Source: an uncultured Candidatus Saccharibacteria bacterium (GTDB lineage: Bacteria > Patescibacteriota > Minisyncoccia > Phycocordibacterales > CSBR16-119). Taken from it: DNA of 64,000 nucleotides. A program made the translations under genes and the position numbers. The stretch covers positions 112,739 to 176,738 of the forward strand of contig CAZHCS010000001.1 of assembly GCA_964531475.1 (NCBI GenBank). Reading direction: 5' to 3'. Below the pieces are notes generated by a model. That model was not told where the DNA came from and made no database searches. It saw nothing but the letters and a program-made list of their open reading frames with translations. Within the stretch, counting starts at the first letter, position 1. The number at the start of each line of letters is the position of its first letter. Shown here piece after piece: positions 13,229 through 51,317 of the stretch.

Positions 13229-13256
13229 GTTTATAGTTTTTAGGTTATAGTTTATA
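13229..13256. repeat. TTATAGTTTTTAG-type spacer motif, copy A
   Basis: tttatagtttttaggttatagtttatag lies in the fba-rpiB spacer and is part of a 17-bp stem inverted repeat (aggttatagtttatagt / actataaactataacct). Confidence 0.5.
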
Positions 13257-13297
13257 GTAAAAAATCTATGCACTATAAACTATAACCTATGCACTCG

Positions 13298-13745: not shown

Positions 13746-13773
13746 AGTTTATAGTTTTTAGCTTATAGTGTAT
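13746..13773. repeat. TTATAGTTTTTAG-type spacer motif, copy B
   Basis: tttatagtttttagcttatagtgtatag lies in the rpiB / 4-helix-bundle spacer. Confidence 0.5.
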
Positions 13774-14140: not shown

Positions 14141-14168
14141 GTCGTCTATAAACTATGCACTAAAAACT
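14141..14168. repeat. TTATAGTTTTTAG-type spacer motif, copy C (inverted)
   Basis: The reverse complement reads gcttatagtttttagtgcatagtttatag, in the 4-helix-bundle / gap spacer. Confidence 0.5.
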
Positions 14169-15201
14169 ATAAGCTCGTCGCTGTCTTCAGTACGTGCTGA
14201 AGCAGCGTCGCCGTATACCCCATCTCGTTGTCGTACCAAGCCATAACTTTGACCAGGTTGCCGCCAACGACGCGCGTCATCTCTAGGTCGACAATGCTCG
14301 GGATCGTCACGCCGATAATGTCTGAGGAAACGATCGGCTCGTCAGTTGCAGTCAGAAGTCCTACCCAACGCGGATCTTTCGAAGCGGTAACGAGAATCTT
14401 GTTAACCTCTTCAACCGTCGTTGGTCTCTTGGAAATGAACGTCACGTCGACAAGCGAGCCGACTGGCACCGGCACGCGAATGGAAATGCCGTCGAAAAGT
14501 CCGGTTAGCGCAGGGAAAGCTTTGGTCACCGCTATCGCCGCGCCCGTAGAACTTGGGACAATATTTTCCGCCGCAGCCCTGCCCTCTCGCAAATCTTTTT
14601 TAGACGGTCCATCAACGAGCGCCTGCGACGCCGTGTATCCGTGAACGGTGGAGAGGATTGCCTTTTCAATACCGAGAGATTCGTGCAAAACGCCAATAAG
14701 TGGCGACGCGGCATTCGTCGTGCATGAAGCATTGGACGTAATATCACATGTGCCGAATTTGTCTTCGTTAACGCCAAGAAGAATCGTTTCGCCAGGTACT
14801 GTTCCGTCAGAGTCTTTCGCTGGCGCGGAAATGACAACCTTCTTCGCACCCTGGTCGAGATGGAATTTGGCCTTCTCAAACGAAGTAAAAAGTCCCGTTG
14901 ATTCTACGACAACGTCGATATTTAAATCTTTCCATGGAAGTCCTGCGGGGTCTTTGGAAGAAACAAATTTCGTCTCGAGCTTTTTAGCACCATCAGAAAC
15001 GACAAGGTTACCGGAACTAAAATCCACAGAAAAAGGCGCACGACCATACACTGTGTCGTATTTGAGGAGATACGCGAGACTTTCTATAGTGCCAAGGTCG
15101 TTCACAGCCACGACTTCTATATCGTCGCGCTCCCAGGCCATCTTATAAAAAGCTCGCCCAATGCGACCAAAACCGTTTATGGCAACACGTACTTTTTGCA
15201 T
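14167..15201 (-). CDS. gap: Glyceraldehyde-3-phosphate dehydrogenase
   Basis: NGFGRIGR Rossmann motif and the SCTTNA active-site signature. Confidence 0.9.
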   Translation of the reverse strand: MQKVRVAINGFGRIGRAFYKMAWERDDIEVVAVNDLGTIESLAYLLKYDTVYGRAPFSVDFSSGNLVVSDGAKKLETKFVSSKDPAGLPWKDLNIDVVVESTGLFTSFEKAKFHLDQGAKKVVISAPAKDSDGTVPGETILLGVNEDKFGTCDITSNASCTTNAASPLIGVLHESLGIEKAILSTVHGYTASQALVDGPSKKDLREGRAAAENIVPSSTGAAIAVTKAFPALTGLFDGISIRVPVPVGSLVDVTFISKRPTTVEEVNKILVTASKDPRWVGLLTATDEPIVSSDIIGVTIPSIVDLEMTRVVGGNLVKVMAWYDNEMGYTATLLQHVLKTATSL

Positions 15202-19876: not shown

Positions 19877-20800
19877 CTAGCTGTTTAATGCCTTTTGCGC
19901 AAGGGCGAGTGCGCCATCCTTGGATTTGGCGACGCAATAGAACCGGCCATCGTGCGCAAAATATGCATCAGCGACTCCGGAAGCTTTTTGGAAATCCGCT
20001 TCTCGAAGACCCGCCCACTCGGCCGGGAACGGCTTACGGGACTCGAACGTATCAGCAGCTTTCCTGACCGTCTCGATCTTCCATCCGTCGCCTTTGGATT
20101 TCGGATAAACGAAATATAGCGGTTCAGCATGATCCACCAAGACGCGATTCACATCCTGGCGCGAATAGGGTTTGCCGAGGATAATGAGACGCTTGTCTTG
20201 CGCGTTCTGATATTCGGCATAAATATCGCGTTCGGCTTCGACCGACGCTTTGGCATGGACGATCTCACGCGCGATGACGGATTTCGCCCAAGCAACCGCC
20301 GCATTGAACTGCGCGAACTCGCGGCTCTCGTCCTCGTTCCAAGCGAGGTTAAACGCGCCGATGATCCCCGATGCCGAATAAGGAAAGACGCGTTCGATGA
20401 CTTGCTTCGAGATATCCTGTCCGTTGTCGACGGCGTCAAGAGATTGAAAGATTTTCTTGTCGAGGACTTCGGCGATAACAGCATCGCCACCGCACAATTC
20501 CGGGCCGTATGCTTTCCAGACAAGTCCGCAAGCCGCATACATAATACCGTTCTCGCGCATACCAGCACGGCCTTTTTGATGATGGTCGAATCGGCCGCGT
20601 GCCGGGTCGTAAACCCCGCCAACATCGAACACGAAGTCCGCACGCTCTATAGTCTCTTGATCGCGCGTGCGGACTATTTCGTACCGCTCGCCTTTTGCAT
20701 CGAAATGCATTTCTAAGATCGCGCAAGCGAACACATCGTCGGCATGAAAGCCTGAGTCGTGGGTGACAAGAATTTTCTTTTTTGCCAGGAAGCTAAACAT
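19877..20800 (-). CDS. MYG1/UPF0160-family metal-dependent hydrolase
   Basis: The N-terminal THDSGFHADDVFA motif is characteristic of the MYG1 family. Confidence 0.7.
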   Translation of the reverse strand: MFSFLAKKKILVTHDSGFHADDVFACAILEMHFDAKGERYEIVRTRDQETIERADFVFDVGGVYDPARGRFDHHQKGRAGMRENGIMYAACGLVWKAYGPELCGGDAVIAEVLDKKIFQSLDAVDNGQDISKQVIERVFPYSASGIIGAFNLAWNEDESREFAQFNAAVAWAKSVIAREIVHAKASVEAERDIYAEYQNAQDKRLIILGKPYSRQDVNRVLVDHAEPLYFVYPKSKGDGWKIETVRKAADTFESRKPFPAEWAGLREADFQKASGVADAYFAHDGRFYCVAKSKDGALALAQKALNS

Positions 20801-21147
20801 TAGTCTTCTTTGTTCTTGCCGAACATGCTGCCGATCCAGTTGAACACCGACACAACAAGAGAGCCGAAAAGCGCCGCGGTGAATGTATCAACGTCCATAC
20901 CCGGCACGATTCCCGAGACGAACCAGAAGAAGAGCGCGTTCAAAACAACAAGGAAGATACCGAGAGTAATGATGGTAATAGGTAGTGTCAGGATGCGGAT
21001 GATTGGCTTGACGATGAACTGAACGACAGTGAGAAGCGCGCCGGCGATAACAATCGTTAACCAGCCATCAGTGTGGACACCGGCAACGAGATAATCGGCC
21101 AAGAAGACCGCGACCGAAAGTAATATGAGTCGTATGAGTAATTTCAT
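20800..21147 (-). CDS. DUF360/holin-4-like small membrane protein
   Basis: 115 aa with 3-4 TM segments. Its start codon lies directly against the inverted-repeat element at 21148. Confidence 0.55.
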   Translation of the reverse strand: MKLLIRLILLSVAVFLADYLVAGVHTDGWLTIVIAGALLTVVQFIVKPIIRILTLPITIITLGIFLVVLNALFFWFVSGIVPGMDVDTFTAALFGSLVVSVFNWIGSMFGKNKED

Positions 21148-21256
21148 CCCGTTAGAAGCAGGTCGCGGTCTTTCCGCTCCATGCTTGGTTATTATTTTTA
21201 ATCATAAACATAATTTTAGCATAGTTTAAAGATTCGTGACCGCGGCTTCTAACGGG
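21148..21256. repeat. CCCGTTAG-TIR palindromic element, copy 1
   Basis: Arms cccgttagaagcaggtcgcggtc / gaccgcggcttctaacggg with an AT-rich core. Flanks are TTCAT on the left and ATTCATG on the right. Confidence 0.65.
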
Positions 21257-21271
21257 ATTCATGTCAATAAT

Positions 21272-21770: not shown

Positions 21771-23615
21771 TTATTTACGGTAACGGAATATAAATTTCTT
21801 ATCAAAATCCCTAAAAACCTTTTTTGATCCGCCACATGTTTCTACATCGAGGAATCTCTTACCATCTATACACCTTGAATAATAAATTACTTCATAGGGA
21901 TGAACACTAATTGGCTCCATTGCAACCAAAACATTATCTGGTCCATCGTAGTTAATTGCCAAATACGGTCCCATTTCAGCTGGACACATTTCAAGACCTA
22001 ATTCTTTGCAGCTCTCAATAAATTTATCAAAATAAAGATCTTCTTTAATCCCTAATTCTTCAGGAGTGAACCCTACAAGATTATATGTTTCTCTATTTTG
22101 ACTGAATTCTGTTCTGTTTAACGCTACCCTGAATGTATTTACATTATTGTGAATACCTCTTTCTTTTAATTTATATTCGGCTTCCCCAGAGTTTCTAATT
22201 TCTAGATTCGTTTCGAAATCCAATAAGAAGATATTGTCTTTTGGAAATCGCTTATACATGTGCTCAATACGAGGATGGTCTTTGATTTTTTTGAAAATGT
22301 CAAAATTCCAGTCTCCAATATAGACCTTCGTATTCTCCTTTATCTCGTCAAGATTATGAGCAATTTGATCTTCTGTACAACCAAAGACGGTCGGTGCGTC
22401 TTCTTCTGGATTTCTTTTACTCAGTAACTCAGAAACTCTCGGATCCTTGTGGTATCCAAATCCCTCAATCGGTGAGTTTAGTTCGTATATAAAGATTAGG
22501 TCTTCTTTTGAAAAAACCTCTCCCTTTTCTTGTTTCTCACAAAGAAGGGTTAGGTATTGCATATCAGCTGATTTCTTTTGATAAACATCAGCCTCACTAC
22601 CGAATTCAGAAAGTTTGTTACTAAGAATCTCTTGCATGGATGATTCAACAGCTTGATTAGGGAGGACGCCCCTTACTTCGGCAATTTTATCTTTTCCTTG
22701 CATACGAATAGCAAGACGAGGCTGTGTTGGTTCACCATTTGAATCATAACTATAGTACACATAGAAATCTCCAGTTTCTATTTGCTGTTTTGCGGTTGAT
22801 TGTCCCGCCGTACACCAGCCTGTTCCTTTACCTTCAAGTGAGGTAAAAAGTTTTTCAGCTTCTCCGTCTTTGCCTTGTTCGTATTTTATCCATTCACCAC
22901 GAAGTTCTTCTTTGTTCTCCATTTGAGCGGCAAGAGACTCTTGGGTCAACTCGGCATACAAATCTGGAAACTTTTTAGAAAAAGCATCTTGTATTTCGGG
23001 TTCTTTGAGATTCTTATTATCAGCTTTTACTTTTTCGTAAATATCAGCTATCTGCGCTAGTGGTTCGCGATAAATATCTGGAAATGGCGCAACAGTAGTT
23101 TTGGTACGCTTTTTATATTCACCACGTTCTTTGTCGAACTGTGAAAGTTTGGTTATATTTTTCCAGACATAATATTTAAACCATGCGGGATAGACAGCAT
23201 CATCCGACGTCAAATAGTCCATCCAAGCGTCGAGAGAAGCTTTCTGGTCTTGAATAGCTACTTCTTTCATTTGATTGCGAGTTTCTTCTGGAATTACTTC
23301 AACAGCCTGCCCTCGCTCTCGAGCAATTTTTTGTTGGAGTTCAAAATAGCTTTCGGGGAAATTTTCTTCTTTTATAATCAAAGAGTCGTATATCTTTGAT
23401 CGGAAAAGTTCTAGATTTCTTTTTCTAGTTTCTTGGTCTTCATTAAGAAATATATTTTCTAGACGTTCGGCGTAAGCTTCAATGCGATTGGAAGGGTCAT
23501 TTGGAATACTTTCACCGGATTCTTTTTCTTTTCTAGAAACAGCCCTTTTAACTTCTGGAGAAGTCTGAAGTTCTGGATTTTTCATATGTAGCGGATGTTT
23601 TTCCATACCCAGCAT
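21771..23615 (-). CDS. Large hypothetical protein (614 aa) in a low-GC segment
   Basis: The ORF is clearly AT-richer than its neighbours. No motif recognised. A leaderless-type -10 (TAAAAT) lies 7 nt upstream. Confidence 0.55.
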   Translation of the reverse strand: MLGMEKHPLHMKNPELQTSPEVKRAVSRKEKESGESIPNDPSNRIEAYAERLENIFLNEDQETRKRNLELFRSKIYDSLIIKEENFPESYFELQQKIARERGQAVEVIPEETRNQMKEVAIQDQKASLDAWMDYLTSDDAVYPAWFKYYVWKNITKLSQFDKERGEYKKRTKTTVAPFPDIYREPLAQIADIYEKVKADNKNLKEPEIQDAFSKKFPDLYAELTQESLAAQMENKEELRGEWIKYEQGKDGEAEKLFTSLEGKGTGWCTAGQSTAKQQIETGDFYVYYSYDSNGEPTQPRLAIRMQGKDKIAEVRGVLPNQAVESSMQEILSNKLSEFGSEADVYQKKSADMQYLTLLCEKQEKGEVFSKEDLIFIYELNSPIEGFGYHKDPRVSELLSKRNPEEDAPTVFGCTEDQIAHNLDEIKENTKVYIGDWNFDIFKKIKDHPRIEHMYKRFPKDNIFLLDFETNLEIRNSGEAEYKLKERGIHNNVNTFRVALNRTEFSQNRETYNLVGFTPEELGIKEDLYFDKFIESCKELGLEMCPAEMGPYLAINYDGPDNVLVAMEPISVHPYEVIYYSRCIDGKRFLDVETCGGSKKVFRDFDKKFIFRYRK

Positions 23616-23641
23616 TTTACCTTATCTGTTATAATTTCGAA

Positions 23642-24364
23642 ATGACCTCAAAACAACTCTTATTTCTCGACACCGAAACAACCGGGAACCTCCCAGAAGA
23701 TCGCTTGTGCCAGCTCTGTTACAAACTTGATAACACAATCGTCTCCGAGCTCTACAAGCCGCCGGTCCCTATCACCATCGAATCCATGGCCGTACATCAC
23801 ATCACGGAAAAAATGGTCGCGGATAGGCCGGCATTCAAGGCAAGTCCCGAATGGAAAGCGCTCGAGGGAATGTTCGCAAAAGACGACACTGTGCTCATCG
23901 CCCACAATGCGAAATTCGACGTCGCCATGCTCGAGAAAGAAGGCCTCATGCCGAAGCGCATCATCGACACGTACCGAGTGGCGCGGCATCTTGATCCTGA
24001 AGGCAAGATCTCCTCGTATCGTTTGCAATATTTGCGCTATCTCCTCGGGATCGAGATCGAAGCGACGGCGCACGATGCCAAGGGCGACGTGCTCGTGCTC
24101 GAACAGCTTTTTGAACGATTGATCAAAAAGATCATGGAGACCGAAAATATTTCGCGCGATACAGCCATCGACCAAATGGTAGATATCTCTTCAAAGCCGT
24201 GCTTGTTCAAATTCTTCACCTTCGGCAAATACAAGAACTCAAGTGTTGAAGAAGTGGCCCAAAAAGACGCCGCATATCTGCGCTGGTTGCTCGAACAAAA
24301 GAAGCAAAATCCCGAAGAAGAGGAAGATTGGATCTATACTCTTGAACAAGCGTTAAAGATGTAG
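23642..24364 (+). CDS. DnaQ-like 3'-5' exonuclease (DEDDh)
   Basis: Exo I FLDTETTG, Exo II AHNAKFD and Exo III HDAKGD motifs. TATAAT lies 7 nt upstream of the ATG. Confidence 0.8.
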   Translation: MTSKQLLFLDTETTGNLPEDRLCQLCYKLDNTIVSELYKPPVPITIESMAVHHITEKMVADRPAFKASPEWKALEGMFAKDDTVLIAHNAKFDVAMLEKEGLMPKRIIDTYRVARHLDPEGKISSYRLQYLRYLLGIEIEATAHDAKGDVLVLEQLFERLIKKIMETENISRDTAIDQMVDISSKPCLFKFFTFGKYKNSSVEEVAQKDAAYLRWLLEQKKQNPEEEEDWIYTLEQALKM

Positions 24365-24606: not shown

Positions 24607-24629
24607 TGTGCTAAAATATTGTCATGAAT

Positions 24630-24745
24630 CCCGTTAGAGATGTTTCGGTTTAGTATTTAATGGGAATCATGATTTTTTATGGTCGTTAATCACTTAGAAA
24701 AAAATAGCCTAGGTACGCAAACCAAAGTTTGCTATCTCTAACGGG
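24630..24745. repeat. CCCGTTAG-TIR palindromic element, copy 2 (degenerate)
   Basis: 12-bp arms cccgttagagat / atctctaacggg. The right end abuts the rmuC ATG. Confidence 0.5.
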
Positions 24746-25774
24746 ATGAACGCAATCATCTACGGCATCATCGGTCTCGTTGTCGGACTTATTCTCGTCC
24801 GGCTTTTCCAGTCGCGTAAAAAGTCTGACGACGGCGCGCCGCTTTTCAAAATGCTTGCCGACGAGATGAAAGACCTGCGCCGCACAATGGACGAAAAACT
24901 CCACCAGTCCAACGAATCTATCCGCTACCAGTCGAGCGAATCACAGCGCCTCATCAAAGAGATCACGCGCGAAATAACCGAAGTCAAAGAGACGGGCCGA
25001 CAAGTCATGGGCTTCACCGACCAACTCCAGCAGCTTCAGAATATGCTAAAGAATCCAAAAAGCCGCGGCGTACTCGGCGAGTATTACCTCGAGACACTTT
25101 TAAAAAATACGCTACCGCCTGGCTCGTACCAGATGCAGTATCCTTTTCAAAATGGCGAGATCGTCGACGCGGCAGTCTTTGTCAAAGACAAAATTATTCC
25201 CGTTGATTCAAAATTCTCTCTCGAAAATTATAATCGTATTACCGATGCTGCTGATCCGTCGGAGCGCGATCGCTTGGAAAAACTATTCTTGAACGATTTG
25301 AAAAATCGCATAGTCGAAACAGCCAAATACATCCGTCCGGAACTAAATACGATGGATTTCGCGTTCATGTTCATTCCCCACGAAGCGATTTATTATGATT
25401 TGCTCGTAAACAAGATCGGCGCGATCGGCGAAGATACTGAAAACCTCATCCAACGCGCAGCATCCAAGTACCGAGTCATCATCGTCTCACCGACCAGCTT
25501 CCTCGCGTACCTGCAGACTGTGCTCCAGGGACTCAAAGCTTTGCAGATCGAAGAATCCGCCAAAGAAATCCAGAAGCGTGTCGGCGAGCTAGGCAAGCAT
25601 TTGAAGTCTTACGAGGACTACCACAACAAACTCGGTCGCAATCTTTCGACAGTCGTGAACCAGTACGAACTTTCTGGCAAAGAACTCAAGAAGATCGACA
25701 AAGACGTCTATCGCATCTCTGGCGAAACTGTCGGCTTGGAGCCGCTCGAAATCGAAAAGCCTCGCGAAGACTAG
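24746..25774 (+). CDS. rmuC: DNA recombination protein RmuC
   Basis: N-terminal TM segment and coiled coil, plus the RmuC core (...DFAFMFIPHEAIY...). Confidence 0.8.
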   Translation: MNAIIYGIIGLVVGLILVRLFQSRKKSDDGAPLFKMLADEMKDLRRTMDEKLHQSNESIRYQSSESQRLIKEITREITEVKETGRQVMGFTDQLQQLQNMLKNPKSRGVLGEYYLETLLKNTLPPGSYQMQYPFQNGEIVDAAVFVKDKIIPVDSKFSLENYNRITDAADPSERDRLEKLFLNDLKNRIVETAKYIRPELNTMDFAFMFIPHEAIYYDLLVNKIGAIGEDTENLIQRAASKYRVIIVSPTSFLAYLQTVLQGLKALQIEESAKEIQKRVGELGKHLKSYEDYHNKLGRNLSTVVNQYELSGKELKKIDKDVYRISGETVGLEPLEIEKPRED

Positions 25775-27550: not shown

Positions 27551-29044
27551 ATGAACTTTATAAACCTATTATCAATACTAGAATCAAAAAATAATTTATC
27601 GGATGATTTATTTAATAAGTACTTAGAATACCTAAACGTCAATCTTGAAGATAACGAAACAGGAGATCTATTAAAATTGACAGAAAGGTTATTTGGAGAA
27701 TATCAAAGTTCAGATATCTTTGATGGGTACTATATTGGATACAAAATACCGCAGATATCAAAAGAGTTTGATTTACTAAGAATCACAAAAAATTCGGTTA
27801 TTAATATTGAATTAAAATCTGGTGCGAGTGAAGAAAGTGTAAAAAAACAGTTAATACAAAATAAATATTATCTTGATTCTCTGAGGAAAGAGAAAATTTA
27901 TAATATTACATATAAATCAAACGAAGATAAGCTTTATATTCTTGATAGGAAGAAAGAGTTATGTGAGTTAGAAGTAAAAGACTTACTAGAAATTTTATTG
28001 ATGGATCCTCCCATAAAAGAGGATTTGGATTCATTATTTGATCCGTCTGAATTTCTTGTATCACCTTTCAATAATACCGATAAGTTTATAAAGGATGAGT
28101 ATTTTTTGACAGACCATCAAATAAAAATTAAGAAGTCTATAATAGAGACAATCGCGAAAAATGAGTTTAGCTCTTACGCTATCTCTGGTAAAGCAGGTAC
28201 AGGAAAAACTTTACTCGTGTATGACATAGCGAAGGAAGTGATGTCTATTGCGAATAAAGTGCTAATCGTTCATTGTGGAAAATTAAATAACGGACATATT
28301 AAGTTACGGGATGAGCATAACTTCGATTTAATTCCGATAAGTGCTTTTACAGAGCAAAGAGTTAAAATGAACTACAGTTTAATTATCTTTGATGAAGCCC
28401 AAAGAATTCGTTCGAGACAATTGACTGTAATTTTAAATAATAAAGGAAAATTTAATTACTTATTTAGTTACGATAAAACCCAAACACTAAGTCTTAGAGA
28501 TGGTAAGCATGGTCTTAAAACTGCCGCTGAATTATATGAGGGAATAAAAAACCATTTTGAATTATCTGAAAATATAAGAACGAATAAAGAAATTGCCTCT
28601 TTCATCAAAAGATTTGTTGACAAAAGTGACAACGTATCCCGAAGAGAATATAAAAATATTACAATACAATACTTTCAGCACATAAATAATGTCACTAGTT
28701 ACGTAAGAAATCTTGAAGATAATGGATGGGTTTATGTAAGTTATACTCCCCAAATGTTCGGGAGTCCGATATATGAAAAATACAATACAATTTCTAAATC
28801 ATTACAAAATGCTCATGATGTTATAGGACAAGAGTTTGATGACGTTGTTGTGATTGTTGGAGAAAAATTTCTGTATAAAGAAACGGGCGAATTAACTCAT
28901 CAGATAAACGGCCCATATATGCCACACAAAATGCTCTTTCAAGCCATGACTAGGGTGAGAAAAAAACTTAAAATAATTATAGTCAATAATCCTGAAATTT
29001 TAGAAAGATGTATAGAGATATTAAGTCCACCTAAAAAAGCATAG
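27551..29044 (+). CDS. PD-(D/E)xK-like nuclease + SF1/DUF2075-like P-loop NTPase (defense-island candidate)
   Basis: Walker A ISGKAGTGKT, Walker B IIFDEAQRI and a motif-VI-like QAMTRVRKKLKII. The N-terminal domain has D..(12)..ELK. The region is very AT-rich (roughly 30% GC by eye) and sits directly 3' of tRNA-Glu. Confidence 0.65.
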   Translation: MNFINLLSILESKNNLSDDLFNKYLEYLNVNLEDNETGDLLKLTERLFGEYQSSDIFDGYYIGYKIPQISKEFDLLRITKNSVINIELKSGASEESVKKQLIQNKYYLDSLRKEKIYNITYKSNEDKLYILDRKKELCELEVKDLLEILLMDPPIKEDLDSLFDPSEFLVSPFNNTDKFIKDEYFLTDHQIKIKKSIIETIAKNEFSSYAISGKAGTGKTLLVYDIAKEVMSIANKVLIVHCGKLNNGHIKLRDEHNFDLIPISAFTEQRVKMNYSLIIFDEAQRIRSRQLTVILNNKGKFNYLFSYDKTQTLSLRDGKHGLKTAAELYEGIKNHFELSENIRTNKEIASFIKRFVDKSDNVSRREYKNITIQYFQHINNVTSYVRNLEDNGWVYVSYTPQMFGSPIYEKYNTISKSLQNAHDVIGQEFDDVVVIVGEKFLYKETGELTHQINGPYMPHKMLFQAMTRVRKKLKIIIVNNPEILERCIEILSPPKKA

Positions 29045-29176
29045 GAAATATTACCGCTACAATGTGTCACTTTTCACCTATGTACGAGAAGGGCCATTGG
29101 GTCATAGTAAAAGTATTAGAAATAACGTTACATGGTAAGGAACCATTTGGTTCTATCTGCTGAGCACTCACAGATA

Positions 29177-29275
29177 CTTGAAAACAAAAACTGCTTTTTG
29201 TTTTCAAGAGATTGTGACGACCGGAGCGATATTTTTGTTTTGCGAAGCAAAGGCAAAAATCGCGAGGTGGGGTCG
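29177..29275. other. Array of three consecutive hairpins at the island boundary
   Basis: cttgaaaacaaaaa-ctg-ctttttgttttcaag; gcgatatttttg..caaaaatcgc; cgcga-ggtgggg-tcgcg. Confidence 0.35.
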
Positions 29276-29475
29276 CGAGAAAATTCTGTTAGGAATTTTA
29301 CTTGTGACCACACAACTTGACTTACTATAGATTATATAGTATTATTTCATTAAATTTCTTTCAAAAGTTACTTGCTTTGCCATAGCCAAAAGAGGCTTTA
29401 TTTAGGCCTTTCCTGGCTATGGCAAATGACGCCTACGCTCCCACCTCGGATTAGAGGTAACAAAAACACAAAACA

Positions 29476-30147
29476 ATGGCTTACAAAAAAGTCGTTGAGG
29501 CGTTGGGTGAATACCCTGCGTCTGTTCTCGAGCTACTCAAGAAGTGGCTCGAATGGTTCGGGCATTTCAAACCCCTCCTCGACCGTTTCCACCAGCTTCG
29601 CAAGGAGGATCTGATGGGACTGATTCACGGGACGCACGAAATCGTGCGAGTAAGGGAAGACGAACCGATCGTAGTCTTCCGTGGGATCTCTGCACGGGTT
29701 GATCTGGATGCAAAACCCACCTGGCCAGAAGATTTCGGCATCCCCGAGCACTTCGGCTTCGGAAATGTGGATGTCCAGAAGAGGTCTCCGAACGATCTCT
29801 ATGTCAACGGAAAGAAGGTCATTCTGTATCAGTCTCCCAAGCAGACGGATGGTGGAGATCCAATTTGGGGATGGGAGGTGCTCAATGAACTTCCTAAGAG
29901 GGTTGTGTTGAACGCCACACTACACAACTTCTTGCAGAAGAACGAGGACTTCATTCCTGAAGACTGGGGCGCTGATGCTGATGGTAAGGTCATCTACATC
30001 TACTTCCTGGGAACTAAGTTCTTCCGAAGGGATGCGGAAGACCAGCGGGTCTTCTTGTATAAGAGGGCTGGCAAGTGGCACTACAGCCGTGGCACGCTAA
30101 GTCGGCAATGGGGGGCTAACGTCTACCTCGCTCGTTTGGAAGACTAG
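29476..30147 (+). CDS. Hypothetical protein
   Basis: 223-aa ORF at normal GC, preceded by a 12-bp-stem hairpin (tttgccatagcc...ggctatggcaaa). Confidence 0.5.
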   Translation: MAYKKVVEALGEYPASVLELLKKWLEWFGHFKPLLDRFHQLRKEDLMGLIHGTHEIVRVREDEPIVVFRGISARVDLDAKPTWPEDFGIPEHFGFGNVDVQKRSPNDLYVNGKKVILYQSPKQTDGGDPIWGWEVLNELPKRVVLNATLHNFLQKNEDFIPEDWGADADGKVIYIYFLGTKFFRRDAEDQRVFLYKRAGKWHYSRGTLSRQWGANVYLARLED

Positions 30148-48037: not shown

Positions 48038-49411
48038 TTATTCGACGAAGCGCCCGACGAGCGTGTCACCTTCGGAGACACCCGTTACTACCTCGACCAT
48101 ACCATCCGAACCCTTGAGACCGACAACAACCGGGACATTTGTTTCTTCGTCGTCACGCAAAATAGTAACAGACGAACCAGAGTCATCTGTTGTGATAAAG
48201 CGCTGTGGCACGCGAAGAGTATTAATCACTTTTGATTTTTCTATAGAAACAGCGGCCGTCATGCCAGAACGAATACGTTCGTCTTCTTGCGAGAATAATA
48301 CTTTGGCACGATACATAGATACACCATCGACTTCTGTCTCTCCAGGATCGATAGAAGCAAGAGTGCCCGGGAAAATGGTTTCGCCATATGCGTCTAGAGT
48401 TATTGACGCAGGAAGACCAGGGATCAAGTTCACAATATCAGACTCCGGAACCTCTACAGAAACCTCGTATCCGCCAGAGGCTATGACGCCAGTGACAACT
48501 GTGCCTATTTCTGCCTGTTCACCGATTTTAATGTCGAGCCTAGAAACCGTACCAGCAAAAGGCGCTCTTATCGTGCGTTCGTTGAGTCGCGCCATTATGC
48601 GAGCAACGCCGGCCTCTGCTTGTTTTATTCGAGCCATGGATATTTCACGAGAGATATTGCCCTGGTCCGCGGCATCACGACTAGCAAGAGCCTTTTCGTA
48701 TGCGTTTAAGTTTTCGACGTAGAATTCTGATTCGACATTAGGTATATCTATCAACCAAACATCCGTGAGCGAAGTGTCTTCTTTGGTAAAAGACAGATAG
48801 AGCCCTTTGGTTCCAAGAGCTATCGGCTTATAAAAATTTATCTCGGCGAAACCAGTTTCAAGACCGGTGTATCTTATCTTTAGACGTGAAGCGCCACCGG
48901 AAGACTCTATTTCTATGCGGTATTGACCCTCGTCTGCACCGCGATAACTACCTGAAACAGTAGGAGGCTCATTGTCGTTGTCTGTGTCGCGCGAATAGGC
49001 TTCCAATCCTTCAGAGAGAAGTTTGGCACGGGCACTTGCAACATCTGTATCGGTTTCTGCATCAGAAACTTTCGCCTCGGCGCGAGCAAGGTCAAGTGTC
49101 GCCTGTGCATCCTGTAGCTCGGCATACAATGTTGCATTGTCGAGTTCGACGATTTTTCCCCCAGCAACAACTGTGTCGCCGGCTTTCTTGTAGATGCGAG
49201 CCACAGTGCCAGATTCGGAAAATGCCATATCAGCGCCTTGCACCGGCTGCGCTTCGCCGTTTAGTACCAACATGTCTACGACATCGCCGCGCTCGACAGT
49301 AAACGTCGAAGTCTGGTCGTCTTTCTTGCCACCGGCAATGAGAAGAATAAGAATAAGCGCGACTGCGCCAATGATCAATTTCTTTTTGTGTTTGGTCCAA
49401 AATGCTTTCAT
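48038..49411 (-). CDS. HlyD/MacA-family periplasmic adaptor
   Basis: TM segment, coiled coil, then lipoyl and beta-barrel pattern. The ATG at 49411 is preferred over the track's start, which lies inside the IR element. Confidence 0.8.
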   Translation of the reverse strand: MKAFWTKHKKKLIIGAVALILILLIAGGKKDDQTSTFTVERGDVVDMLVLNGEAQPVQGADMAFSESGTVARIYKKAGDTVVAGGKIVELDNATLYAELQDAQATLDLARAEAKVSDAETDTDVASARAKLLSEGLEAYSRDTDNDNEPPTVSGSYRGADEGQYRIEIESSGGASRLKIRYTGLETGFAEINFYKPIALGTKGLYLSFTKEDTSLTDVWLIDIPNVESEFYVENLNAYEKALASRDAADQGNISREISMARIKQAEAGVARIMARLNERTIRAPFAGTVSRLDIKIGEQAEIGTVVTGVIASGGYEVSVEVPESDIVNLIPGLPASITLDAYGETIFPGTLASIDPGETEVDGVSMYRAKVLFSQEDERIRSGMTAAVSIEKSKVINTLRVPQRFITTDDSGSSVTILRDDEETNVPVVVGLKGSDGMVEVVTGVSEGDTLVGRFVE

Positions 49412-49491
49412 CCCGTTAGTGACAGGTCGCGCTCTCACGTGCCTGATAATTTAGATTTGTAATATCCCGAGCGACCACGGTCACTAACGGG
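49412..49491. repeat. CCCGTTAG-TIR palindromic element, copy 3
   Basis: Arms cccgttagtgacaggtcgcgc / gcgaccacggtcactaacggg. The left end abuts the HlyD-like gene ATG. Confidence 0.65.
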
Positions 49492-49557
49492 ATTCATGGC
49501 AACATAATAACATGAAAACGTCCGATTTAGAAGACTGTTTTTTCAATTAAAACAAGA

Positions 49558-50705: not shown

Positions 50706-51194
50706 CTATTTGAACATAATAGTCATTTCTGCCGCATCATCGAACTGGGATTCGCCGGATGGATTGTCCTTCTGAAAGATAAGCGTACCGCGTTCGCCAT
50801 AGGCCGGTTTTACAAATGTAAGAGTCCCCGAGAACGGCACGTAATCTGTCGTCATCCATTCGCCCTCTGCCATCACATATCCTTCGGCAATAATGAGACC
50901 GTCCCAGTCGGTCAGCGTAACCGGCGCAGAAGCTTCGAAGAACCAATTACCCGGCGCGCGTCCGCGAATAACGAGCGGATTTTCGATACTGTCGCCATCT
51001 TTCAAGTTTTCGACATATATCTTGATCCCGCGAATACTCGTTAGCTCGGTTTCAACTGGAGCCGCAGGAACGGTTGGCGACGGATCCAAGACGACTGGTG
51101 TTTCGGTAGGATGATTTATCTTATTCAACACAACAACAACCAAGATCGCTCCGACTATTACGATAAGTATATTTTTCATAAGATTCCACTGCAT
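50706..51194 (-). CDS. Secreted hypothetical protein
   Basis: The ATG at 51194 lies directly against IR element copy 4. An alternative start is MKNILIV at 51179. It has a TM segment/signal and a beta-rich domain. Confidence 0.5.
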   Translation of the reverse strand: MQWNLMKNILIVIVGAILVVVVLNKINHPTETPVVLDPSPTVPAAPVETELTSIRGIKIYVENLKDGDSIENPLVIRGRAPGNWFFEASAPVTLTDWDGLIIAEGYVMAEGEWMTTDYVPFSGTLTFVKPAYGERGTLIFQKDNPSGESQFDDAAEMTIMFK

Positions 51195-51308
51195 CCCGTT
51201 AGAGACAGGTCGCGGTGATCCCGCGATATGCCTTGATAATGTTTATAATTTTTATATTATTAATCATTGCAGATTTTCCAGAATTTAGCGACCGCGGTCT
51301 CTAACGGG
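51195..51308. repeat. CCCGTTAG-TIR palindromic element, copy 4
   Basis: Arms cccgttagagacaggtcgcggtg / agcgaccgcggtctctaacggg with an AT-rich core. Flanks are TGCAT on the left and ATGCAT on the right. Confidence 0.65.
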
Positions 51309-51317
51309 ATGCATAGA

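Follow-up and report, generated by a model that had tools for sequence, protein, structure and literature searches.

Palindromic elements at gene starts in a Saccharibacteria contig: probable members of a widespread family of MITE-like mobile elements that duplicate start codons

The Correia elements of Neisseria (CREE or nemis) are about 100–155 bp long, have long terminal inverted repeats (TIRs) and a 2-bp duplication, lie near gene starts and are co-transcribed as mRNA hairpins. The mycobacterial interspersed repetitive units (MIRU) are short intercistronic repeats whose small open reading frames (ORFs) overlap the flanking stop and start codons, preserving translational coupling. Here we describe four palindromic elements at gene starts in a 64-kb stretch of contig CAZHCS010000001.1 from an uncultured Candidatus Saccharibacteria bacterium (the window, meaning the whole stretch analysed). 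These palindromes are very probably copies of a widespread, undescribed family of non-autonomous mobile elements that resemble MITEs (miniature inverted-repeat transposable elements) and duplicate the start codon of the gene they enter. Literature searches on the motif, on MITEs in the candidate phyla radiation (CPR), on start-codon MITEs and on leaderless Saccharibacteria found no description of the family. For the translation of genes that carry an insert, a ribosome relay is our best guess; the whole package, mobile element plus relay mechanism, we put forward tentatively, as a shade nearer to doubt than to belief.

The octamer CCCGTTAG occurs eight times in the window, compared with 1.09 occurrences expected and a maximum of 4 in 100 shuffled sequences. 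All eight are arms of the four inverted pairs, and each pair adjoins the ATG of a gene. The adjacent genes are real ones: they encode a PF04020/DUF360 protein, RmuC, an HlyD-type adaptor and a Gmad2-domain protein. The preliminary description had placed the four elements correctly and noticed their AT-rich cores, but its spans were too short, because the flanking AT belongs to the inverted repeat. The element termini are ATCCCGTTAGAnnn...nnnTCTAACGGGAT, and they form a 14-bp terminal stem consisting of ATCCCGTTAGA (11 conserved positions) and three covarying base pairs. The TIRs of roughly 20 bp ascribed to copies 1, 3 and 4 are this 14-bp stem followed, beyond an internal loop of 3 nt on one side and 1 nt on the other, by a second helix (GGTCGC/GCGACC). 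In copy 2, whose arms had been called short and degenerate, all 14 bp of the terminal stem are paired, and only the second helix is missing. Members of the family are 80–122 bp long, and their internal ORFs are at most 41 codons and without coding-type constraint. Similarity between the window cores is barely above that of shuffled sequence.

Read in the sense of the gene, all copies follow the scheme ...ATG N / ATCCCGTTAGA nnn ... nnn TCTAACGGGAT / G N A..., where slashes mark the ends of the element. The downstream start codon is made of the element's final AT and one flanking G, and the far end bears a second ATG(N). The (T/G)CAT at that far end had been taken for a target duplication. A short duplication does exist, but the motif as a whole, read on the opposite strand, is ATG(A/C) and thus represents the original start codon. 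The duplicated dinucleotide is GA in copies 1–3 and GC in copy 4. Since N is identical at both ends (A in copies 1–3, C in copy 4), the two ends covary as expected for a target-site duplication.

To find further members, one genome per species was scanned with the pattern ATCCCGTTAG-N70-100-CTAACGGGAT, the bases outside the AT being unconstrained. The scan returned at least 120 loci, compared with about 17 chance matches calculated for the pattern; the copy statistics that follow (137 copies, 119 at starts, 107 of these with a distal ATG) refer to the matches listed. About 105 of the 120 loci listed are from the ultra-small Patescibacteria (CPR), including Saccharibacteria, many Paceibacteria/Parcubacteria groups, Levyibacteriota, Doudnabacteria and Kerfeldbacteria. 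The non-CPR hosts listed are Omnitrophota, Sedimentisphaerales and other Planctomycetes, WOR-3, Smithellaceae and one Bacteroidia genome. The family reaches beyond one genome, to the whole CPR superphylum and some other phyla. Its empty sites (see below) and more than 130 further copies in more than 115 other genomes agree with the earlier likening to MITEs or Correia elements positioned at translation starts. Extra copies in element-bearing genomes amount to about 0.034 per kb, and the window has 4 in 64 kb. Local copy density was very high in L049 (4 copies in 8 kb), L059, L048 and L028, with up to about one copy per two genes.

On one side of 119 of the 137 copies, the AT/G junction is the beginning of an ORF of 40 codons or more. 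The distal ATG(N) is kept in 107 of these 119, and the fourth base agrees between the ends in about 94%. The remaining 18 copies are mostly cut by a contig end, the outer member of a tandem, or of a second (AA) target class. Carriers include topA, glyS, clpP, ssb, pheT, gyrA, dnaN, dnaJ, adk, murG, secG, rpmC and rpmI. Since essential genes carry copies, the insert cannot block expression. No shared function was found among the carrier genes. The membrane and secreted proteins that stood out among the carriers are a coincidence of the window, as N-terminal hydrophobic segments are found in 30% of carriers and 31% of control genes. Copies recur at the same genes in different genomes (clpP, ssb, pheT and others), and ancient orthologous insertion was considered and rejected: cores ahead of the same gene family are similar only at the shuffled level, and the recurrence is not above chance. 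In a search for viral carriage, two viral contigs matched. In one of them, from IMG/VR (L128, 3734–3829), the copy is at a start codon and contains nested TIR-like repeats. When copy 4 was compared by BLAST with plasmid and phage collections, only AT-rich chance matches were returned.

Orthologous loci without the element provided the direct evidence for insertion. The rmuC locus was compared with contigs of RmuC orthologues at 98, 84, 82 and 79% protein identity, and it is element-free in all four (L122, L124, L125 and L126). The empty sites have a terminator hairpin, then TG(G/A)TAAAAT, 6–7 nt and ATGAAy..., the −10 form being TGGTAAAAT-N6-ATG. The filled site, in the window and in an identical public contig, reads TGCTAAAAT ATTGTC ATGA(element)GAACGC.... 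The closest relative, L122, has 94% nucleotide identity in rmuC and lacks copy 1 as well: its DUF360 site reads ...CGCATAATCATTTTTTATGAAATTACTC, compared with ...CGCATAGATTATTGACATGA(element)GAAATTACTC in the window. The empty sites that the preliminary description had looked for in related genomes are thus clean at both rmuC and the DUF360 gene (ATGAAC / ATGAAA), indicating that the copies are insertions with a 2-bp duplication. With the terminal AT counted as part of the element, the duplication is GA; otherwise it is ATGA, and the two models yield one and the same sequence. Slightly more copies agree with the 2-bp model, since it alone accommodates those with ATGAG downstream; in its strict form, the flanks match in 89 of 107 copies. 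Moreover, some copies stand as tandem pairs joined only by the duplicated dinucleotide (GGGAT-GA-ATCCC; L007 7672–7897, L045 5471–5712, L067 3561–3802 and L087 6502–6722), and thus the rebuilt site can be hit again. Near-identical sister copies were also found within one genome (L049).

The target logo from 89 reconstructed empty sites is A-T-G-A(83%)/G(11%)-A(96%), and no other position is informative. Insertion is into the pentanucleotide A-T-G-A/G-A, whose two central bases become duplicated. Since the last bases of the element are AT, a gene hit in its start codon keeps the old ATG(N) upstream and gains a rebuilt ATG(N) downstream, with its reading frame intact. A census of ATGAA in the same loci, with a crude ORF-based annotation, counted 1715 sites within long ORFs, 608 elsewhere and 213 at ORF starts. 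The bias toward start codons suspected earlier was clearly present: 119 of 137 copies, and about 90% of the GA-type copies, are on start codons, compared with at most about 26% if insertion into coding sequence were lethal and all other insertions neutral. This excess could be due to a targeting mechanism, or to selection against or for particular sites. Transcription start sites were rejected as a general target, because 44 of 107 copies are operon-internal without a promoter. One of these is copy 4 of the window, where the upstream SIMPL gene ends in a stop codon 3 nt ahead of the original ATG. In 13 of the 44, two cistrons overlap at the old ATGA, which holds the stop of one and the start of the next. 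Relative to the gene, the elements have a fixed orientation: a marker beside the 3' arm is in sense in 34 copies and antisense in 1, and GGGA is found in 43 cores compared with 5 for its complement. An invertible promoter (inverton) was dismissed on this 34-to-1 orientation and the lack of a positioned −10 box in the core.

The stem is strongly conserved as a paired structure. Over the 14-bp ends of the 137 distinct sequences, 92.7% of cells are paired, positions 12–14 show 48–52 double changes each (A-T, G-C, C-G and T-A), and all five stem measures were above every one of 500 shuffles and all slid controls. A variant search allowing at most 2 mismatches per arm, with a criterion blind to pairing, showed that rare variants within the 11 conserved positions are compensatory (ACCCC...GGGGT, ATCAC...GTGAT and GTCCC...GGGAC). 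Therefore, either selection maintains the pairing of the arms, or one arm is copied from the other. Ends of the ACCCC...GGGGT type (L035 432–512, L086 6721–6790, L001 7481–7577) would rebuild GTG and not ATG. The long subfamily (117–120 nt), to which window copies 1, 3 and 4 belong, has a second helix of 6–7 bp after the internal loop, and its sequence covaries (GGTCGC/GCGACC, GATCGC/GCGATC and GGACGC/GCGTCC). Other copies have a local hairpin, ACGG-N5...N5-CCU, adjoining the 3' arm. For the window copies, RNA folding predicted energies of −36.7 to −53.3 kcal/mol, with z of −4.6 to −8.0 against shuffles. The A and U of the start codon are the final two pairs of the predicted hairpin, in line with the earlier suggestion that the AU of the AUG would pair at the base of a long hairpin. 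Covariance searches of both classes against Rfam 15 gave only tRNAs at the gathering score; relaxed searches gave generic miRNA-precursor hairpins far below threshold.

A sister lineage was recognized by its flanks. A few non-CPR copies in the species scan have ATAA/element/AA flanks and are located exactly after a TAA stop. A scan of metagenomes with the TAA-element-AA pattern returned at least 120 loci. Among the matches listed, the flanks are (A 79%, G 16%)-T/AA/A(100%), and the hosts are mixed. The AA type accounts for 122 of the 132 copies in these loci. Only 21 of 121 listed copies directly follow an ORF of at least 60 codons, and most are in ordinary intergenic DNA. The logo is that of the GA pentanucleotide with A for G, and thus the family target is A-T-R-A-A. 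The duplicated dinucleotide is lineage-specific, and only the GA lineage, found in CPR, ends on start codons. A major AA subfamily (about 100 nt; L173, L185, L134, L137, L140 and others) contains two covarying internal hairpins and a repeated GGGGTATTA motif. This subfamily may represent a structured RNA or a series of sites bound by protein. L215 (7101–7524) contains a nest of short (54–68 nt) ACCCCGTTAG...CTAACGGGGT variants directly after a TAA stop, beside a duplicated 3' end of the gene. It was considered as an autonomous element and turned out to be this nest of short copies.

The signals around the elements follow the translation mode of the host. The window genome has essentially no Shine-Dalgarno (SD) sites. 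TGnTAnnnT peaks 6 nt before the ATG, in 10–14 of about 60 window genes compared with 0–2 at most other spacings (e.g. 24609–24626 and 49495–49512), and this peak is the signature of leaderless mRNAs. Operon-internal genes of the window overlap or stand 0–4 nt apart. An SD-like motif precedes 9% of genes in the CPR loci and 24.5% in the non-CPR loci, while a −10 box at leaderless spacing precedes 26% and 2%, respectively. In the sequence before the elements' old ATG, enrichment is seen for the −10 hexamer at a spacer of 6–7 nt (31 of 107 copies) and not for SD motifs. With a −10 box or the end of an upstream cistron before the old ATG, the transcript begins, or the cistron ends, at the old AUG, and thus the element is in the mRNA. 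It is co-transcribed from host signals, either a leaderless promoter 6–7 nt before the old ATG or the upstream cistron. A promoter supplied by the element, as the preliminary description proposed, did not hold up: the cores have no conserved outward promoter and no positional enrichment of −10 or extended −10 boxes on either strand, a two-hexamer sigma-70 scan of the regions around copies 2 and 3 found nothing, and the host's extended −10 box is before the old start.

In the 3' arm, GGAG or GAGG is located 8–13 nt before the rebuilt ATG in all five non-CPR start-codon copies and one viral copy, compared with only 9 of 126 copies in CPR. The viral copy in L128 has an SD before the old ATG and a second AAGGAGG in its 3' arm, 10 nt before the rebuilt ATG. 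Read from the old AUG, the frame crosses the 5' arm without a stop (AUG NAU CCC GUU AGA). At the other end, each of the two frames off the gene frame meets a stop, either the UAA of CUAACGGG, which is 4 nt ahead of the rebuilt AUG, or the UGA within AUGA; this is the stop-start geometry found between cistrons in the window genome. In 34 of 107 copies, no stop interrupts the old-AUG frame across the core, compared with 11.8 predicted from shuffles; the corresponding figure for the remaining two sense frames is 21 of 214. By length class, 20 of 39 are open in the UAA-N4-AUG class (p = 1.6e-9), 13 of 46 in the AUGA class (p = 0.001) and 1 of 22, the baseline, in the in-frame class. Full-length leader ORFs were found in 20 of 44 operon-internal copies, 8 of 35 with a promoter only and 4 of 28 with neither. 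The leader ORF of copy 1 has 36 codons from the old ATG and stops at the TAA of the repeat, 4 nt before the rebuilt ATG. A functional leader peptide was rejected, because the third codon position shows no bias and synonymous changes are far fewer than non-synonymous ones. The SD in the arm and the arrangement of the leader frame suggest that the element is adapted to the translation of its host.

Our best guess from these sequence patterns is a translational relay. The old AUG would remain the entry point of ribosomes, which would load at the 5' end of a leaderless mRNA or re-initiate there once the upstream gene has been read, and would read a short meaningless ORF (MNPVR...) into the element, melting the hairpin. 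In about a third of the copies, termination would take place at one of two stops, the UAA in the downstream repeat (UAA-CGGG-AUG) or the UGA within AUGA, and re-initiation would follow at the rebuilt AUG. In SD-using hosts, the GGAGG of the downstream arm might serve instead.

Several observations weigh against this combined account of mobility and relay. The relay needs no hairpin, yet the hairpin is the feature most strongly conserved. About 40% of the copies have no plausible ORF relay to the rebuilt AUG even if restarts are allowed. Homologous leader ORFs have no codon-position bias, so that only their openness is selectable. The AA lineage, which has no upstream ATG, also has an open-frame excess in one register, with different length classes, and thus shared ancestry of copies can inflate such statistics. 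G-T and A-C mismatches in the stem are equally frequent and do not point to pairing in RNA over pairing in DNA. As for an autonomous partner, no TIR pair 140–5000 bp apart enclosing a transposase-sized ORF was found in 1.9 Mb of loci.

Alternatively, the family may be simply selfish. Its enzyme would prefer ATRAA, copies on start codons would survive as the harmless ones, the hairpin would be needed only for transposition (as single-stranded DNA or a cruciform), and the rebuilt AUG would be used by ordinary internal initiation at some cost. The AA sister lineage, with the same logo (A)T/AA/A, is indeed found in ordinary intergenic DNA, stem mismatches have no RNA-type asymmetry, the cores evolve freely and the leader ORF has no peptide-level constraint. 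However, non-start intergenic ATGAA sites outnumber those at starts by about 3:1 (crude annotation), yet some 90% of GA-type copies are on starts. Nor would such an element be expected to carry an SD in its 3' arm precisely in SD-using hosts, to keep an orientation of 34 to 1, to have open leader ORFs enriched only in the length classes that permit stop-start coupling, or to be present at highly expressed essential genes. We regard the purely selfish explanation as unlikely.

A different proposal concerns the mobility step alone and is compatible with any of the expression models. The tandem junction GGGAT-GA-ATCCC looks like joined ends, either of an IS30-like transposon circle or of a recombinase core site. 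The element might thus move as a small circle by site-specific recombination and not by a cut-and-paste transposase of the DDE (acidic-triad) type, with the joined ends CTAACGGGAT-GA-ATCCCGTTAG as a palindromic core and ATGAA as the crossover or overlap region in common with the target. The tandem copies do show a joined-end junction with a 2-bp spacer, the target resembles the junction centre (AT-GA-A) and nothing else, the duplicated dinucleotide is specific to the lineage (GA in CPR, AA in the other set), excision appears clean, and orientation is fixed relative to an asymmetric core. On the other hand, about 10% of copies have duplications of 1 or 3 bp, as would be more readily expected of an imprecise transposase; all 4 copies that bear the marker and have a palindromic GC duplication keep the usual orientation; no recombinase gene was linked to the element; and the covariation beyond the putative binding arms would not be explained. 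We consider a small circle quite unlikely.

The conservation of the stem could also mean that, in genomes where translation starts only at 5'-terminal AUGs or through stop-start re-initiation, the hairpin itself passes an initiating or post-termination ribosome from the old AUG at its 5' foot to the rebuilt AUG at its 3' foot, leaving the insert untranslated. If such a shunt or bypass were true, an insert of about 110 nt would be invisible to translation, and the invariance of the stem, the 4-nt overhang and the terminal AU throughout a superphylum would be explained. The geometry is invariant (4 unpaired nt, a 14-bp stem and an AUG at the 3' foot), and the stem is the conserved, compensated feature. 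In 107 of 119 copies the "take-off" codon is the same as the "landing" codon (AUG, usually AUGA), the upstream stop of 13 operon-internal copies is the UGA of the old AUGA at the stem foot, and essential genes bear copies whose leader ORF ends early. But the target duplication yields matching codons automatically, the distal ATG is lost at about the rate of the neutral fourth base (about 6% per site), and the open-frame excess in two length classes is not predicted. To our knowledge, no such mechanism has been described for bacterial initiation, and we consider the shunt very unlikely.

No more probable, in our view, is a domesticated cis-regulatory RNA, in which the stem would bind a CPR-wide protein or RNase, or act as a thermosensor or a stabilising 5' hairpin, and transposition would spread the regulon: 11 nt per arm are invariant over many phylum-level lineages, beyond the needs of pairing, the start codon is partly sequestered in the predicted stem, and a strand-specific GGGA(U/A) at nt 20–40 (43 copies compared with 5 for the complement) might be an anti-sequestor with the 5' end, but the carrier genes share no function, presence at the same gene varies among close relatives, the core is unconstrained, Rfam gave no match, and a binding site for a transposase or recombinase predicts invariant ends equally well. 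5' stem-loops about 4 nt from the 5' end are known to stabilise mRNAs, and the hairpins of the leaderless transcripts start 4 nt in.

If the description of the family holds, ends that regenerate a start codon are an unusual route by which selfish DNA becomes harmless, and the family is a bacterial counterpart of introner-like or bypass elements. It would colonise the only free space in the extremely compact genomes of Patescibacteria, essential genes included. It would also offer a natural experiment on start-codon choice without SD sequences, with the same genes found with and without a structured leader of 110 nt. The invariant 11-nt ends imply an enzyme or binding factor of very wide distribution. 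In gene calling and comparative work on CPR genomes, such inserts are to be expected at gene starts.

The coordinates of the four copies in the window are given in Table 1. Elsewhere in the window, 10-mers resembling ACTATAAAC have 12 matches compared with 3.7 expected. A cluster of them, on both strands, is upstream of three consecutive minus-strand genes (13229–13287, 13747–13756 and 14165–14174), and it looks like an operator or a repeat array. Two stretches have a low GC content (22001–24000, 0.40; 28001–30000, 0.38) compared with about 0.47 elsewhere in the window. The first covers a gene for a 614-aa protein (21771–23615) that has no Pfam match on the public contig.

Table 1. Element copies and associated features in the window (coordinates are positions in the 64-kb window)
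Feature	Position	Strand	Remarks
Copy 1 (113 bp), long subfamily	21146..21258	-	before PF04020/DUF360 gene (20800-21147, -)
Copy 1, distal (5' in RNA) 14-nt terminal repeat ATCCCGTTAGAAGC	21245..21258	-	
Copy 1, proximal (3') terminal repeat GCTTCTAACGGGAT	21146..21159	-	final AT = first two bases of rebuilt start
Copy 1, rebuilt start codon	21145-21147	-	
Copy 1, original start and duplicated dinucleotide (ATGA)	21259..21262	-	second GA at 21144-21145
Copy 2 (120 bp), local 3' hairpin ACGCAAACCAAAGTTTGC	24628..24747	+	before rmuC (24746-25774)
Copy 2, original start and duplicated GA (ATGA)	24624..24627	+	second GA 24748-24749; rebuilt ATG 24746-24748
Host extended -10 box TGCTAAAAT, outside copy 2	24609..24617	+	6 nt before original rmuC ATG; leaderless promoter
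Copy 3 (84 bp), short form of long subfamily	49410..49493	-	before HlyD-like gene (48038-49411, -)
Copy 3, original start and duplicated GA (ATGA)	49494..49497	-	rebuilt ATG 49409-49411
Copy 3, host -10 box TATTAT	49504-49509	-	
Copy 4 (118 bp), long subfamily	51193..51310	-	before Gmad2-domain gene (50706-51194, -)
Copy 4, original start and duplicated GC (ATGC)	51311..51314	-	rebuilt ATG 51192-51194; second GC 51191-51192

Among known systems, the Correia elements are similar in being non-autonomous, with TIRs, a 2-bp duplication, many copies near gene starts and mRNA hairpins. They differ in that they duplicate TA, are restricted to a single genus, vary in their distance from genes and often provide promoters or RNase III sites, whereas the present family duplicates GA or AA, is inside a rebuilt start codon, carries no promoter and is superphylum-wide. 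Membership in the Correia/CREE family was rejected, since the duplication is GA, GG, GC, GT or AA and not TA, and ATCCCGTTAGA is unrelated to the Correia repeat. RUP and other IS630-type MITEs are also similar, with about 107 bp, TIRs, a 2-bp duplication and presumed mobilisation in trans, but they have a TA target and a known IS630 partner, while our family has an ATRAA target and no partner was found in the 1.9 Mb searched. REP/REPIN sequences, which are mobilised by RAYT, share the hairpin doublets of about 100 nt and the compensatory stem changes, and copies of the AA lineage are often just after stops. Unlike the family, REPINs have no target duplication, have a GTAG motif and flank a RAYT gene. 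The family was not assigned to REP/REPIN-RAYT because it has a duplication and other ends; no RAYT gene was seen, though no linkage search was made. Integron attC sites (RYYYAAC...GTTRRRY) were rejected because the order is reversed here (5' GTTAGA...TCTAAC 3') and the copies are single and at housekeeping genes. Palindromic elements derived from IS200/IS605 (PATE) were rejected because the family has 14-bp inverted repeats and a dinucleotide that covaries between the flanks.

Other systems are comparable at the level of translation. The MIRU can be compared through the leader ORFs of the family, which end at UAA-N4-AUG or AUGA, but they are direct tandem repeats without inverted repeats, a hairpin or a start-codon duplication. 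Rickettsia palindromic elements, byp elements and the gap of phage T4 gene 60 are likewise selfish palindromic inserts within genes, rendered harmless at translation. The Rickettsia elements, however, are translated in frame within the protein. The bypass elements have identical take-off and landing codons and a hairpin at take-off, and the same features are seen here, with AUG(N) at both ends in 107 of 119 copies and a stem from +5. These follow automatically from the duplication, and ribosome skipping is only conjectured; the shunt considered above would be akin to that of cauliflower mosaic virus or to the hop in phage T4 gene 60. Bypass elements are inside the coding sequence and need a nascent-peptide signal, whereas our family inserts after codon 1 and the frame is restored by the rebuilt start. 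The small size, the 14-bp TIRs, the target duplication at filled and empty sites and the dispersed, variable copies make the family a bacterial MITE by kind. What is new is its scale, the rebuilding of the start codon and the translation signals that match those of the host.

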